From Escherichia phage Lw1: a stretch of 64,000 bases of DNA. Under the pieces are notes generated by a model, which saw nothing but the letters and a program-made list of their open reading frames with translations, had not been told where the DNA came from and did no database searches. Each line of letters begins with the position of its first letter. Within the stretch, counting starts at the first letter, position 1. The translations under genes and the position numbers were made by a program. The stretch lies in sequence record KC801932; one strand, given 5' to 3'. Of this stretch, positions 7,206-13,933 are shown in pieces.

Positions 7206-7375
7206 AGAACCCCCAGGGTGCGCCCCATTTTACTCATGATATCAGCAAATATCATGAAGTTGACAATAAACACAACGACAATACAAATATTAGATGTTAT
7301 GCGATGCCCTCGTTCGGCACATGCCATAGAAAGATATAACAACACATAAAGGAAAACAATTATTAGCCATAGCAT
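7202..7375 (-). CDS. small membrane protein (57 aa; start at MLWLII)
   Basis: GAGGA RBS 9 nt upstream of ATG at 7375; hydrophobic throughout. Confidence 0.45.
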   Translation of the reverse strand: MLWLIIVFLYVLLYLSMACAERGHRITSNICIVVVFIVNFMIFADIMSKMGRTLGVL

Positions 7376-7385
7376 AATATAATCC

Positions 7386-7589
7386 TCACTGGATATAGCG
7401 GTTGTAGTTGACGTGCCACATGAGACTTGACACAACATCATAAGCAAGCAAAGAGAACAAGACAAAAGTCACTATCAAAAGGATAGCTAACCAAGTAGTT
7501 CCGATCTGGTGTTTTGAAGATAACAACAAACACACGATACTGACAAAAGAAAGTACAGTGATAACAAGCATCACGATTGAAGGGGCCAT
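7386..7589 (-). CDS. small membrane protein (67 aa)
   Basis: two hydrophobic helices; GAGGA RBS; preceded by terminator hairpin 7607-7622. Confidence 0.5.
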   Translation of the reverse strand: MAPSIVMLVITVLSFVSIVCLLLSSKHQIGTTWLAILLIVTFVLFSLLAYDVVSSLMWHVNYNRYIQ

Positions 7590-7630
7590 AATACAATCCT
7601 CACAAAAGCCCCTTTCGGGGCTTGATTTAA

Positions 7631-7909
7631 TCAGTGTCCGAACACACCACGAATTGATTCAGCGAAAGCGTAGAACGCGGGGTTGTTTTCTTTCAACATT
7701 GCTTCTGATTTCAAAAGATACTCACCTTTAAACTTAGTACCAAACAGACAGTAAGAGAAAGAGCGATCCCACATGAAGCAGTTGTAATACTCACCACAAC
7801 GAACTTCAACCATCACGTAACCAGGATTAGAACCTTCGGCATACTCTTTCAGGAGGTTGTATTTCGCATCAGCACCAGGAAAACCAGCCAGCAAATCGTT
7901 GTAAGTCAT
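7631..7909 (-). CDS. hypothetical protein (92 aa)
   Basis: ORF followed by hairpin terminator. Confidence 0.5.
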   Translation of the reverse strand: MTYNDLLAGFPGADAKYNLLKEYAEGSNPGYVMVEVRCGEYYNCFMWDRSFSYCLFGTKFKGEYLLKSEAMLKENNPAFYAFAESIRGVFGH

Positions 7910-7981
7910 GATGTATTCCTTTTTCGGTTTCGTTTCAACAAGGACACTGTATTATAATTCAATCATCATTGCAAGCACTTT

Positions 7982-8236
7982 TTAAAAAAGATGCGTTAAA
8001 TGTCCTGCATTGCTGGGGTATTCGACGTAATCACCACGGAAGATGTTCAAATCTTTATCAAATTTAAACCCATGTCCTTGAACATCTTCATGACGAGATA
8101 CATAAGATACTCCATACTTTTCAAGGTCTTCCATATACATTTCGGTGATTCTCTTCGCTTTATCCAATCCGCGTCCCTCAAATCGAGAACGTCGATAATT
8201 CGCAAGAAGAAACGCATATAATTCTTCGTATGTCAT
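7982..8236 (-). CDS. hypothetical protein (84 aa)
   Basis: ORF; overlaps upstream methyltransferase gene end. Confidence 0.45.
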   Translation of the reverse strand: MTYEELYAFLLANYRRSRFEGRGLDKAKRITEMYMEDLEKYGVSYVSRHEDVQGHGFKFDKDLNIFRGDYVEYPSNAGHLTHLF

Positions 8237-9144
8237 TTCAATACCTTTCTGATTTGTTTCGCTATGGCTTCGATCACGGGTATTGAAACTGAATTTCCCG
8301 CTTGACGATATGCCTGTTTTTTACTATCCGGTATGATAAATGAATCAGGGAATCCCTGCAAACGAAAACACTCACGGGGAGTAAGTCTTCTGGGGTTCTT
8401 TCCTTCCTGCAACACCAGACATTGAACGCCGTCCTTGTAATACTGCTGGGTTATCGTCCCAGTGTGCGTAGAATCGCTTGTGACGGCCTGATAACCAAAC
8501 CCCTTACCATTCGCCTTGTTTCGTTCCTTACGCTCTCTAAAGCCTTTCCACGCGTTATCTGATAGGGTGTATGAATCATCAGCATCTTCGAGGATATCGC
8601 CCACTCTCGTAGGGGTACGCGGAGGAACAGGAAACGAAAAGAATACATCATCCAGGAAGCAAACAATAAACACACGTTCACGTCTTTGTGGTAGTCCGAA
8701 ATCTTTTGTATTCAGTCGTTGATAGAATACGTTATATCCTTCGGCCTCCAGAAGCCCGTAAATCGTTTTAAACGTCTTCCCCTTGTCATGGGTTAGTAGT
8801 TCAGGCACGTTCTCAAAGAACAGCACACGGGGCTTTTTAGCGCGTATGATGCGGAGTATTTCAAAGAACACAGTACCGCGAACATCATCGAACCCCAGTT
8901 TTAATCCTGCTTTACTGAATGCCTGACACGGGAACCCAGCCAACAGGATATCGTGATCAGGTACTTCGGTTTCTTTTATCTGGAACAGATCTCCCTGTAG
9001 GTTATCATTGCCCCAGTTTTCGATATATGTTTGCTGTGCGAACTTGTCGATTTCAGACGTTAAAAGGCATTCGACACCGCCGAACGCCTTATCAAATCCT
9101 AATCGAACCCCGCCCACACCAGCACAGAGGTCAATTATTTTCAT
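8233..9144 (-). CDS. DNA (cytosine-5)-methyltransferase, Dcm-like
   Basis: all canonical C5-MTase motifs in order: I DLCAGVGG, IV GFPCQAFS, VI FENVPEL, VIII QRRERVF, IX RLTPRECFRLQGFPDSF, X GNSVSIPV. Confidence 0.9.
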   Translation of the reverse strand: MKIIDLCAGVGGVRLGFDKAFGGVECLLTSEIDKFAQQTYIENWGNDNLQGDLFQIKETEVPDHDILLAGFPCQAFSKAGLKLGFDDVRGTVFFEILRIIRAKKPRVLFFENVPELLTHDKGKTFKTIYGLLEAEGYNVFYQRLNTKDFGLPQRRERVFIVCFLDDVFFSFPVPPRTPTRVGDILEDADDSYTLSDNAWKGFRERKERNKANGKGFGYQAVTSDSTHTGTITQQYYKDGVQCLVLQEGKNPRRLTPRECFRLQGFPDSFIIPDSKKQAYRQAGNSVSIPVIEAIAKQIRKVLK

Positions 9145-9685: not shown

Positions 9686-9921
9686 TCCGTTTCGATACCG
9701 TATTTGTATGCGTCAATCCCCAGAGGGGTGATCAACAGACACATATCAGTATTTTCGTTTGGCGACTTAAACGCCGCAGTTGCGTAACCTTTTTCAATCA
9801 GGGCATTACGCCCTGATTTACTGGGTACGTCATCGAAATCCAATGTTAACACCTGTGATGCATATCTGTAAAGTTTATACAGCACGTCAATTTCAGCACC
9901 GGATAATTTCGGGAATGTCAT
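9676..9921 (-). CDS. hypothetical protein (81 aa)
   Basis: ORF. Confidence 0.45.
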   Translation of the reverse strand: MTFPKLSGAEIDVLYKLYRYASQVLTLDFDDVPSKSGRNALIEKGYATAAFKSPNENTDMCLLITPLGIDAYKYGIETEWH

Positions 9922-10916
9922 TTGTAGTACCCCACAACGTGATCGCGATAAACGCGTTCGATAAAGTCGTTCCAGAACTCGCGATCAACCTCTTTCGGAT
10001 AATTAGAGACTGCTGCAAGGCGTTCGACTTCACCCATGATTTCTTCCAGCTTTTCCTGGACAAAAGTGAAAGGTTTCGTTCCGGCTTTAACTTCTTTTAA
10101 AAGCTGGCTCTCTTCCAGAGGATATACGATATCACCATGTTTGTAAATGCTGATAAGCTGTAAGCCTCCGCGCAATGCGTGAGAAAGTGCTTTCCAGTCG
10201 ATCCCGTTGTTGGCTTCTGCCTGTCTTGCTCGTTCACCATATTCGTCCCAGAGTTTATACACTGACTTTTTCATTTCAGCTACGGTGATCGTAGACTGGA
10301 ATTTGCGCCCCAGCACTTCATAGAAGTCCTGACAACCGGATTTCAGGGTTTTGTCTGTAGTGAATCGACAGAACTCATTGGTCGGGAATGTGTGAGAGAC
10401 TTCACCAACTTTGATGTGATGTGTTGCGTCACCCAGATTAGACGGCATACGAACAATGCGGCTATTTGGTGTATCCTGCAACACATCGTATACTTCACGC
10501 AGTGCAGCCAGGCGAGAACCTTTAACGCCATACTTCGCCGCTTGCTTACGAACATAACCAAACAGGCCAGTTAGTTCCGTAGTGTAGAAACGTGAACGGT
10601 TAGCGCGGATATACTGCCAGATTTCGGAGTTAGCGATCATCTTACTATCATCAGCATGAAGCATATCGAGCGCTACGGTATCACCATCACACGCAAGGCT
10701 AATGAACTTAGGCAGACTATACAACTGACGGTCGATGTCGTCTACGGTGTTCTTAGAGCTTTTATCGCCCGTGCTCGTGTCGATAGTCTTCGGGGCTTTA
10801 CCCAGTAAGATATCGCGTGGATGCGGGAGAAAGATCCCTTTATAATCTTTGTCGCTTGTCGGGGTGTTCAGTCCATACAGGTGAGAACCGAACACAGTTT
10901 CCATTACAATTTTCAT
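9918..10916 (-). CDS. Pol-beta superfamily nucleotidyltransferase (332 aa)
   Basis: N-terminal GS-x9-[DE]h[DE] signature FGSHLYGLNTPTSDKDYKGIF with third acidic residue about 60 aa downstream (ALDMLHADD); helical C-terminal half. Confidence 0.55.
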   Translation of the reverse strand: MKIVMETVFGSHLYGLNTPTSDKDYKGIFLPHPRDILLGKAPKTIDTSTGDKSSKNTVDDIDRQLYSLPKFISLACDGDTVALDMLHADDSKMIANSEIWQYIRANRSRFYTTELTGLFGYVRKQAAKYGVKGSRLAALREVYDVLQDTPNSRIVRMPSNLGDATHHIKVGEVSHTFPTNEFCRFTTDKTLKSGCQDFYEVLGRKFQSTITVAEMKKSVYKLWDEYGERARQAEANNGIDWKALSHALRGGLQLISIYKHGDIVYPLEESQLLKEVKAGTKPFTFVQEKLEEIMGEVERLAAVSNYPKEVDREFWNDFIERVYRDHVVGYYK

Positions 10917-11311
10917 AGTTCAATACCTAATGTTTTTGCGATATCTTTCAGTTGAAATGTAGCGATTTCGGGAACAACAACATAATGAGTACCGAACTCT
11001 TTTCGTATTTTTTCGCACAGTTCAGTACGATACTGAATTTCATTGTATACAGTTTCGCTGCGATACATATAAAATCCACCCCATCCACCACCAGAACCCG
11101 AAGTCAACCCGCACTTACGATCGACTTTCTCAACGTTCCAGTCTTTCGCGTCAGCATCTTTGTTGGTGGATGCGTACAAGTATTGACGAGCAACCTTGAT
11201 TACGTGAAACACGCGAGGATTTTCGACTCTGCGATTATTGTAATTTCTTGTACCCGGATCGTAAATGGTATCACCCACTTTCACATCAGTTAAATCTTTC
11301 AAATTATTCAT
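10913..11311 (-). CDS. hypothetical protein (132 aa, Gly-rich GSGGGWGG)
   Basis: ORF; overlaps neighbours by 4 nt. Confidence 0.45.
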   Translation of the reverse strand: MNNLKDLTDVKVGDTIYDPGTRNYNNRRVENPRVFHVIKVARQYLYASTNKDADAKDWNVEKVDRKCGLTSGSGGGWGGFYMYRSETVYNEIQYRTELCEKIRKEFGTHYVVVPEIATFQLKDIAKTLGIEL

Positions 11312-12593: not shown

Positions 12594-12650
12594 TCGTTTC
12601 GATGCCCCTAATATAACAAAAGCCCTCACGCGAACGCAAGGGCTTTTTTA
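12594..12650 (-). promoter_or_regulatory. PeSL-like cassette 2
   Basis: hairpin aaaagccctcacgcgaacgcaagggctttttt + TGTTATATT + conserved leader. Confidence 0.6.
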
Positions 12651-12750: not shown

Positions 12751-13809
12751 TTAAAGTCCAGTAAACGCAACGATAATCTGATAGTGGTCATCGAAGAACT
12801 CACCACGTTTCTGTTTGACTTCGTGCATAGGCATCCAGAACGCCTCTGCTGCATCGTCAGCGCCTCCCATAATACGGGGCAGACTTCCATCATTGTTAGG
12901 CTCTAACTTGATGTATTGCGCTACAGTCGGTTTTGAGAAGTGTACGGAACGCTTCGGATGGTCGAACAGCATAGAATTGCGGATTGAACCACGGATAACC
13001 TTTTCAGGAACCTTGATCCGAACTTCTTCGAGCAATTCGCGGATCGCACAATCCAGGAACGTTTCATTCGCGTTTTTGTGTCCACCTGGCAGGGCTAATG
13101 CGCCTTTACCTGGTGCAAACTTACGACGAATCACTAACACATGGTTATTACAAACAACCACGCTATCACCAGTACAACAGTTTAACGCGTCGGGGTATGG
13201 GTACGCTTTGAACTTCTCCAGTTCATCTTCCCATTTCTCGAACTCGTAGTACAAGCGCCAGAACGTATCGGTCATCATCCATCCGTTAAGAGAACCCACG
13301 ACAGCAGCAGGAACATAACGGGCGATCTTCTCGTCCCATCCATTTTTATGTAAAAAGATGGTTGGACGCAGGTCGGTAGCAGATAAATCTTTGCCGTCAA
13401 CCTTAACCGGATCAACCGGAACATGAGTCCATCCGAACGCTTTAAGCCAGTACGAATCAGCATCTTTTTCGTAACCGTAGATCGCGATGTTATCGCCTTT
13501 GGTTTCGTCGATTGCTGTACGAACAGAGGTTTTCCATTTTTCTTCATTGTAAAGGTAATCTGGAATCGGCTTGAATTGCACACGGGCTACATCTTCGTAT
13601 TTGAACTCAGACAGTAACCAGCTTGTAATCATACGTTCCCGTTCGGTTGCCGTCAGCGGGTTTAAAACGTTAGGGTAAGCATAAGCTGAACCCAGGAGGA
13701 TATAAACGGTCTTCGACTCTTCCAGTGCTTTACGCACCATTGCCGCGTGACCATTATGGAAGGGTTGGAATCTGCCAATTACGACAGCTTTATCAAATTT
13801 GTATTTCAT
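12751..13809 (-). CDS. bifunctional NMN adenylyltransferase / Nudix hydrolase (NatV/NadM-like)
   Basis: N-terminal (H/T)xGH nucleotidyltransferase motif GRFQPFHNGH; C-terminal Nudix box GGHKNANETFLDCAIRELLEEV; start set at MKYKFDK with GTGGAG RBS. Confidence 0.8.
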   Translation of the reverse strand: MKYKFDKAVVIGRFQPFHNGHAAMVRKALEESKTVYILLGSAYAYPNVLNPLTATERERMITSWLLSEFKYEDVARVQFKPIPDYLYNEEKWKTSVRTAIDETKGDNIAIYGYEKDADSYWLKAFGWTHVPVDPVKVDGKDLSATDLRPTIFLHKNGWDEKIARYVPAAVVGSLNGWMMTDTFWRLYYEFEKWEDELEKFKAYPYPDALNCCTGDSVVVCNNHVLVIRRKFAPGKGALALPGGHKNANETFLDCAIRELLEEVRIKVPEKVIRGSIRNSMLFDHPKRSVHFSKPTVAQYIKLEPNNDGSLPRIMGGADDAAEAFWMPMHEVKQKRGEFFDDHYQIIVAFTGL

Positions 13810-13834
13810 AACGTGCTCCACGTTTAAAGGGTAA

Positions 13835-13933
13835 TCATAAAACAGACGCAATAATCAATACACCAAGCAAACCGCCAATAAAGCCGAAGAATAGCGAAAT
13901 GAAGATAGATAAGATGATCTGTTTTATGTTCAT
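13835..13933 (-). CDS. possible 32-aa hydrophobic peptide
   Basis: ATG..TGA ORF below ORF-track size cut-off; single predicted TM helix; low confidence. Confidence 0.25.
   Translation of the reverse strand: MNIKQIILSIFISLFFGFIGGLLGVLIIASVL

Follow-up and report, generated by a model that had tools for sequence, protein, structure and literature searches.

An RlaP-family nucleotidyltransferase of Escherichia phage Lw1, orthologous to T4 NrdC.11, and its proposed role in RNA 3'-end repair

Escherichia phage Lw1 encodes a nucleotidyltransferase (NTase) that is almost certainly the Pseudotevenvirus (RB43/Miller-like) orthologue of T4 NrdC.11 and a member of the RlaP family (PF10127) of the Pol-beta superfamily. 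The gene lies on the minus strand at 9918..10916 of the 64,000-nucleotide stretch of record KC801932 that we analysed, which is referred to here as the window. By analogy with the characterised members of the family, and from the genes that surround its bacterial relatives, it would seem likely that the protein adds nucleotides to RNA 3' ends and so rebuilds trimmed anticodon loops for tRNA repair by the phage Pnkp and Rnl1; we would put the probability of this at roughly 60%. The gene itself is already known, with a named T4 orthologue, a RefSeq annotation as a nucleotidyltransferase, a named Pfam family and a citation by name in recent biochemistry. What is new here is the linkage of full-length bacterial homologues of the NrdC.11 type to RNA-repair genes.

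Identity and catalytic core

The 332-residue open reading frame (ORF) starts at an ATG and is uninterrupted, its N-terminus reading MKIVMETVFGSHLYGLNTPTSDKDYKGIF. In Pfam it matches PF10127 ("RlaP, RNA repair pathway DNA polymerase beta family") with 52.8 bits and an E-value of 6e-14, for a gathering cut-off of 23, the match running from residue 2 to residue 133 and covering only positions 19-143 of the 249 in the profile. PHROG 388 ("nucleotidyltransferase") is matched end to end (residues 1-331, 2e-117). While a first-pass annotation, made by a model from the sequence alone, knew of no T4 gene of this kind, BLASTP aligns the protein with T4 NrdC.11 over 332 residues at 51% identity (E 2e-118). 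The T4 gene (NC_000866 55435-56445, NP_049709.1) has the RefSeq product "nucleotidyltransferase" and its protein itself matches PF10127. The NrdC.11 of RB43 is 87% identical, and in Citrobacter phage Miller (genus Pseudotevenvirus), the best annotated relative, the orthologue is annotated "nucleotidyltransferase, RB43 NrdC.11-like". Orthology with the T4 and RB43 proteins extends over the full length, with the same start, a similar size (332 as against 336 residues) and the same conserved motifs. The genes also occupy the same genomic zone, in a leftward early/accessory string lying between rI/tk on one side and nrdC/baseplate on the other, and the flanking DNA shows 83-86% identity with T4-like phages from Citrobacter, Enterobacter, Klebsiella and Cronobacter.

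Relatives are numerous. The protein was found by tblastn in 1,691 phage records, and a profile search gave 6,557 cluster representatives at E<=1e-3, with 1,448 of these at E<=1e-30; a precomputed PF10127 domain is present in 120 of the 120 homologues among the matches listed. Neither NCBIfam nor PADLOC gave a match for the ORF. A hidden Markov model of canonical RlaP, built here, has this ORF as its sole match in the window, which thus holds no second RlaP copy detectable with this model. The gene and the elements of its catalytic core are as follows.

9918..10916, minus strand: complete coding sequence of the NrdC.11-type RlaP-family nucleotidyltransferase, 332 residues (from the ORF list, PHROG 388 and the identities to T4 and RB43 NrdC.11)
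10632..10916, minus strand: N-terminal Pol-beta NTase core, about residues 1-95
10845..10889, minus strand: GS...DxD catalytic signature, G10 S11 ... D22 K D24, translated as GSHLYGLNTPTSDKD
10731..10739, minus strand: D60-I-D62 (translation DID), with D62, on predicted strand 61-67, as the probable third catalytic carboxylate
10656..10667, minus strand: D84-M-L-H87 (translation DMLH), a conserved acid placed by profile alignment

Members of the Pol-beta superfamily carry the signature hG[GS]x9-13Dh[DE]h. Here it reads F9-G10-S11-x10-D22-K-D24-Y, within that range; the motif had been correctly picked out by the first-pass annotation, though as GS-x9-[DE]h[DE], one residue short of the ten that separate GS from DxD. 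Across 75 aligned homologues, which share 32-51% identity with the query, G10, S21, D22 and D24 do not vary at all, and conservation is at least 90% for S11, D60, D62 and D84. Given this conservation, and the recurrence of the protein in so many phage records and cluster representatives, the signature is not a chance match.

The NrdC.11-type family was compared, profile to profile, with the canonical short RlaP of bacterial operons using hhalign. Only 88 N-terminal columns align (probability 89%, E 2e-6). Within these, D22 and D24 fall opposite the invariant DxD of canonical RlaP, D62 opposite an invariant aspartate (D88 in the reference) and D84, in the sequence ALDMLH, opposite the invariant glutamate of the EWL motif. 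The third carboxylate of the Pol-beta superfamily sits on a beta-strand. In a model predicted with AlphaFold2, D62 is on the strand formed by residues 61-67 and D84 is on a helix. Because of this position and its alignment to the invariant aspartate, D62 is likely to complete a metal-binding triad with D22 and D24. D84, which had earlier been taken as the third acid, about 60 residues downstream of the signature, is indeed well conserved, and would be a fourth acid beside the putative triad.

RNA-repair genes beside bacterial homologues

At the level of the family, the description of the enzyme in the first-pass annotation as being of unknown specificity is outdated. RlaP, a name given by Burroughs and Aravind in 2016 (as cited in PMC12776372 and PMC7824862), has been characterised from both Pseudomonas fluorescens and P. 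aeruginosa (Carruthers, Fatma and Huang, bioRxiv December 2025; PMC12776372). According to that study the substrate is RNA and not DNA or protein, and the enzymes add one or two nucleoside monophosphates (NMPs), or dNMPs, to the 3'-OH, with a preference for Mn2+ or Co2+. Mimics of nicked tRNA are favoured, and for a tRNA lacking one anticodon-loop nucleotide, treatment with RlaP before ligation restores aminoacylation. The authors suggest a role for RlaP against "smart" ribotoxins, RloC for example, which trim the RNA after cutting it, and explicitly place T4 NrdC.11 in cluster 5 of their PF10127 similarity network (PMC12776372). Among jumbo phages, RlaP is distributed in the same way as RNA ligases (PMC7824862).

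The genomic context of bacterial relatives was investigated by scanning one genome per bacterial and archaeal species, seeded on two C-terminal subfamily motifs and with the KQAAKYGVKGSR motif as the search pattern. Of the 80 loci recovered, one (L004) was set aside, since it has the look of a phage genome within an assembly of bacterial DNA. The remaining 79 loci, from bacteria or metagenome-assembled genomes, encode homologues that are 30-49% identical over essentially their full length. In the locus set aside (NZ_JBHSCL010000010.1, from the 'Flagellimonas marina' assembly) NrdC.11 is 82% identical to the query, and the contig is probably a phage genome or a contaminant. ORFs were called in 6-kb flanks and clustered, and the cluster representatives were identified with Pfam. 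Four kinds of RNA-repair gene were found.

RtcB ligase (PF01139, 2e-132): 11 of 79 loci
Pnkp, a kinase-phosphatase-Rnl1-type ligase (Pfam): 7 of 79 loci
TROVE/Ro60 (Pfam): 6 of 79 loci
Hen1 (PF12623, 3e-112): 5 of 79 loci

At least one of these lies within 6 kb in 18 of the 79 loci, and these 18 represent at least eight distinct lineages. As a rough expectation, with about 4 Mb per genome, chance would bring a given single-copy gene to within 12 kb of another gene about 0.3% of the time, so the enrichment of RNA-repair neighbours appears very large. In about 19-22 of the 79 loci a canonical short RlaP, matching PF10127 over the full profile with 227 bits, lies directly downstream of the NrdC.11-type gene, often with overlapping stop and start codons (examples are L013, L025, L045, L046, L054-L056, L066 and L068). 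These tandem pairs are frequently inside RtcB, Pnkp-Hen1 or Ro60 operons, which suggests that a single repair system employs two NTases with non-redundant roles. Two operons illustrate the arrangement.

L025 (Nitrosospira): Ro60-RtcB-x-NrdC.11type-RlaP-Hen1-..-Pnkp
L066 (Asticcacaulis): Hen1-Pnkp-NrdC.11type-RlaP, with overlapping stop and start codons

Outside the T4-like phages, a related NTase of Gordonia phage Trax is no more than 4 kb from an RNA ligase and a Ro-like protein; in the same locus, NAD-salvage genes (NAMPT, PRPP synthetase) lie between the RNA ligase and the RlaP-like NTase, a parallel to the NMN adenylyltransferase/Nudix gene upstream of the NTase in the window.

The operons in which full-length bacterial homologues stand with ligase and end-healing genes point to the repair of breaks. 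The same chemistry could in principle serve RNA 3'-end addition for another purpose, in rebuilding the trimmed 3'-CCA of tRNAs or in tailing host or phage transcripts to alter their stability. The reactions of the family would be identical in either case, and when total RNA was labelled with RlaP the label reached ribosomal RNA and full-length tRNAs as well as fragments (PMC12776372). Beside the phage copy there is no ligase gene, and the coupled gene upstream encodes a ProQ-C-like domain, both of which would suit such a role. Against it stand the RtcB, Pnkp-Hen1 and Ro60 operons in which the bacterial proteins are embedded, and the Pfam search, where the ORF shows no match to the head domains of CCA-adding enzymes or poly(A) polymerases. 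On balance we regard end addition of this other kind as unlikely.

Predicted structure and relation to canonical RlaP

The AlphaFold2 model was calculated from an 18-sequence alignment and has a mean pLDDT (predicted local distance difference test) of 85.9. The N-terminal core, with strands at residues 2-9, 23-30, 44-48 and 61-67, has an alpha/beta NTase fold that resembles solved Pol-beta members, in agreement with the fold proposed by the first-pass annotation. A Foldseek search of the PDB returned mainly Pol-beta NTases at modest E-values, of 2e-3 and up, among them 3c18, Hailong HalB, ANT(4'), Tam41, poly(A) polymerases, TUTases, LinB and AAD(9). Among predicted viral structures, the fold matches include many nucleotidyltransferases of phages, giant viruses and baculoviruses (HE65). 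By sequence, neither the protein nor the NrdC.11 profile nor the canonical RlaP profile found a significant match in the PDB, in a copy that was evidently without the PfRlaP crystal structure. Beyond the core the following elements can be distinguished.

10512..10547, minus strand: the KQAAKYGVKGSR motif, residues 124-135, characteristic of the NrdC.11-type subfamily (from translation and conservation)
10296..10469, minus strand: variable beta-rich insert, about residues 150-207 (from predicted strands and the family alignment)
9924..10283, minus strand: C-terminal helical domain, about residues 212-331, a bundle of long helices
10170-10232, minus strand: conserved basic motif R229...K242..H246..R249, within the C-terminal domain

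The KQAAKYGVKGSR motif is borne by a helical linker region; over the 75 homologues Y129 does not vary, and conservation is at least 90% for Q125, K128 and G133. The insert, with predicted strands at 152-156, 163-167, 183-188, 196-201 and 204-207, shows insertions and deletions and low conservation in the alignment of the NrdC.11-type family. The C-terminal half had been described beforehand as a 230-residue helical domain; helical segments are present in the model, but with the beta-rich insert between them it is helical only in part. A role of the C-terminal domain as a HEPN nuclease was considered and rejected, as the Rx4-6H motif is absent and the conserved H246-x2-R249 differs from it; the protein does not, therefore, show the pairing of a minimal NTase with an Rx4-6H-bearing HEPN domain that marks the MNT-HEPN toxin-antitoxin systems.

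With canonical RlaP of P. fluorescens and P. aeruginosa the protein shares its Pfam family, the GS...DxD...D...E/D core, the plan of an NTase domain followed by a helical C-terminal domain and, in bacteria, the association with RtcB and Pnkp-Hen1 operons. The NrdC.11 type differs in being about 60-80 residues longer and in having a C-terminal half, with its beta-rich insert, that neither Pfam nor hhalign can align, so that homology to RlaP is seen for the N-terminal part and not for the whole protein. It also co-occurs with the canonical enzyme in bacteria rather than replacing it, and the measured activity belongs to the canonical type only. From these sequence comparisons the NrdC.11 type is best treated as a distinct RlaP subfamily, corresponding to cluster 5 of the published network (PMC12776372). 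Its pairing with canonical RlaP in bacteria hints at a distinct sub-function. We would tentatively go further and suggest that it may be a functionally distinct branch with its own C-terminal substrate-binding domain, doing what the canonical enzyme cannot and being the only branch captured by T4-like phages against RloC-type nucleases, although this is rather doubtful. The distinction might lie in the specific nucleotide added, in the particular damaged tRNA recognised or in a different end chemistry.

The structural matches also raise the possibility that the substrate is a protein or a small molecule, nucleotidylated (AMPylated) as by ANT, MNT, GlnE or DrrA, with the inactivation of a host defence protein or toxin as an example. 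Kanamycin and other aminoglycoside NTases (ANT(4'), AAD(9), LinB) have a comparable arrangement, in which an NTase core precedes a helical, HEPN-related substrate-binding domain. However, their substrates are small molecules, the sequence likeness stops at the catalytic signature and a resistance context is absent here. The structural matches are weak and at the level of the superfamily, with 5-16% identity, E. coli proteins were not substrates of canonical RlaP (PMC12776372), H246-x2-R249 is not the HEPN motif, and the bacterial neighbourhoods are those of RNA repair and not of toxin-antitoxin systems. Nucleotidylation of this sort would thus seem improbable.

Still less probable is a primer-independent oligonucleotide synthase like HalB of the Hailong system, making nucleotide decoys, of the oligo(dA) type or others, by which a host effector would be held inactive, or otherwise interfering with signalling defence. 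HalB (PDB 9dbh) ranks top among the structural matches, probably because the PDB copy searched was without an RlaP structure. The identity to HalB is only 15%; for HalB and the NTase-like protein 3c18 taken together it is 5-15%, with no match at the level of sequence, and the likeness is one of superfamily. HalB sits in a defence operon with HalA, whereas no HalA-like partner was found in any of the contexts examined, so that neither the sequence homology nor the adjacent HalA channel gene expected of a Hailong HalB is found and only structural similarity remains. PADLOC was empty, and both the family assignment and the bacterial neighbourhoods favour RNA repair. Equally, no CD-NTase appears among the fold matches, and together with the PADLOC result this gives no indication of a CD-NTase or cGAS-OAS enzyme. 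Of the candidate roles listed in the first-pass annotation, tRNA or RNA repair is therefore the one that the evidence favours, and a signalling enzyme or a toxin is without support.

The phage locus and a proposed role in tRNA repair

In the phage the NTase gene is part of a tightly packed, translationally coupled string of small leftward genes that runs from about 12600 down to 8233, and its stop overlaps the start of the next gene. A decayed or non-functional ORF with a motif acquired by chance is refuted by the intact reading frame, these overlap-coupled neighbours, the invariant catalytic residues in 75 homologues and the thousands of relatives. The surrounding features are as follows.

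10913..11311, minus strand: 132-residue gene upstream of the NTase with a ProQ C-terminal-like domain (phage) (PF24203, 3.6e-18), its stop overlapping the NTase start (ATGA)
8233-9144, minus strand: C5 cytosine DNA methyltransferase, 303 residues, at the end of the leftward string and annotated so in related phages
12618-12647: strong terminator-like hairpin upstream of the gene string, from a terminator scan
12751-13851, minus strand: 366-residue protein with cytidylyltransferase-like and Nudix domains, 2 kb upstream of the NTase; NMN adenylyltransferase/Nudix hydrolase in phage Miller
25188-26399, minus strand: 403-residue ORF whose product carries a SPASM iron-sulfur domain (PF13186, 1e-5) and is probably an enzyme of the radical-SAM type

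ProQ is an RNA chaperone, and the ProQ-C-like protein could be an RNA-binding partner of the NTase, a tentative link, since the two genes do not adjoin in T4, Acj9 or Thanatos-1. In T4, nrdC.11 is flanked by a mobD homing endonuclease and the putative ATPase gene nrdC.10, whereas here the ProQ-C-like gene and small ORFs take these places. The nrdC.10 gene is the downstream neighbour of nrdC.11 in both T4 and Acj9 and is absent at that position in the window; the T4 protein (7344-8321 of our T4 locus, L002) shows weak matches to AAA/STAND-type NTPases, below the Pfam cut-offs. Apart from the one strong hairpin, the terminator scan of the window did not rise above shuffled controls, and the promoter scan gave weak consensus matches only. 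No tRNA genes were found in the window, and none of the ten window ORFs scanned matched RNA ligase or Pnkp.

The classic tRNA repair pathway of T4 consists of Pnkp and Rnl1, and RloC excises the wobble nucleotide so that simple religation yields a dead tRNA. If NrdC.11 rebuilds trimmed anticodon loops, as we propose, it would do so by a two-metal Pol-beta mechanism, probably with Mn2+, like that of the Pseudomonas RlaP enzymes, extending the 3'-OH of a broken RNA by one or two NMPs in an untemplated reaction. The conserved basic residues R229, K242, H246 and R249 of the C-terminal domain may hold the RNA or the nucleoside triphosphate in the cleft between the domains. During infection, nucleotides lost from the anticodon loops of host or phage tRNAs to cut-then-trim nucleases such as RloC would be put back, and Pnkp and Rnl1, whose genes lie at other places in the genomes of this group of phages, could reseal the full-length tRNA. 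The substrate, the number of nucleotides added, the metal and the biological target are here inferred for NrdC.11 by analogy with the characterised enzymes. Homologues of Rnl1 were found by tblastn in the close relatives RB16 and YI837, and one of Pnkp in Entb_46, the closest nucleotide match to the window. In T4 the block from nrdC.11 to mobD.3 is dispensable, the phage surviving its loss (PMC9825161), which fits an accessory, conflict-related role.

Several observations weigh against this proposal. The biochemistry stems from canonical RlaP, with which the shared alignment amounts to the 88 N-terminal columns, and because the C-terminal, substrate-binding half is unlike that of canonical RlaP the specificity could differ. 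An RNA-repair gene is missing from the flanks of 61 of the 79 bacterial loci, some of which are on short contigs and some possibly derived from phages. The linkage to RNA ligases and end-healing enzymes seen for the bacterial homologues has no local counterpart in the phage window, and the immediate neighbours of the gene differ between T4, Acj9, Thanatos-1 and the present window. The canonical RlaP that partners the NrdC.11 type in bacteria is also missing from the window, and the roles of the two may be non-redundant. Finally, within the T4-like phages the numbers of organisms with tblastn matches to NrdC.11, to Rnl1 and to Pnkp are nearly the same; we rejected these as independent co-occurrence, since they reflect shared ancestry within the clade.

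The Lw1 gene is a widespread orthologue that had been annotated before, and it does not represent a new kind of enzyme. If the proposed function in rebuilding anticodon loops is correct, NrdC.11 would join Pnkp and Rnl1 as a third component of the T4 tRNA repair pathway. It would then explain how T4-like phages could overcome RloC-type nucleases, an idea that has been in the literature since 2016.

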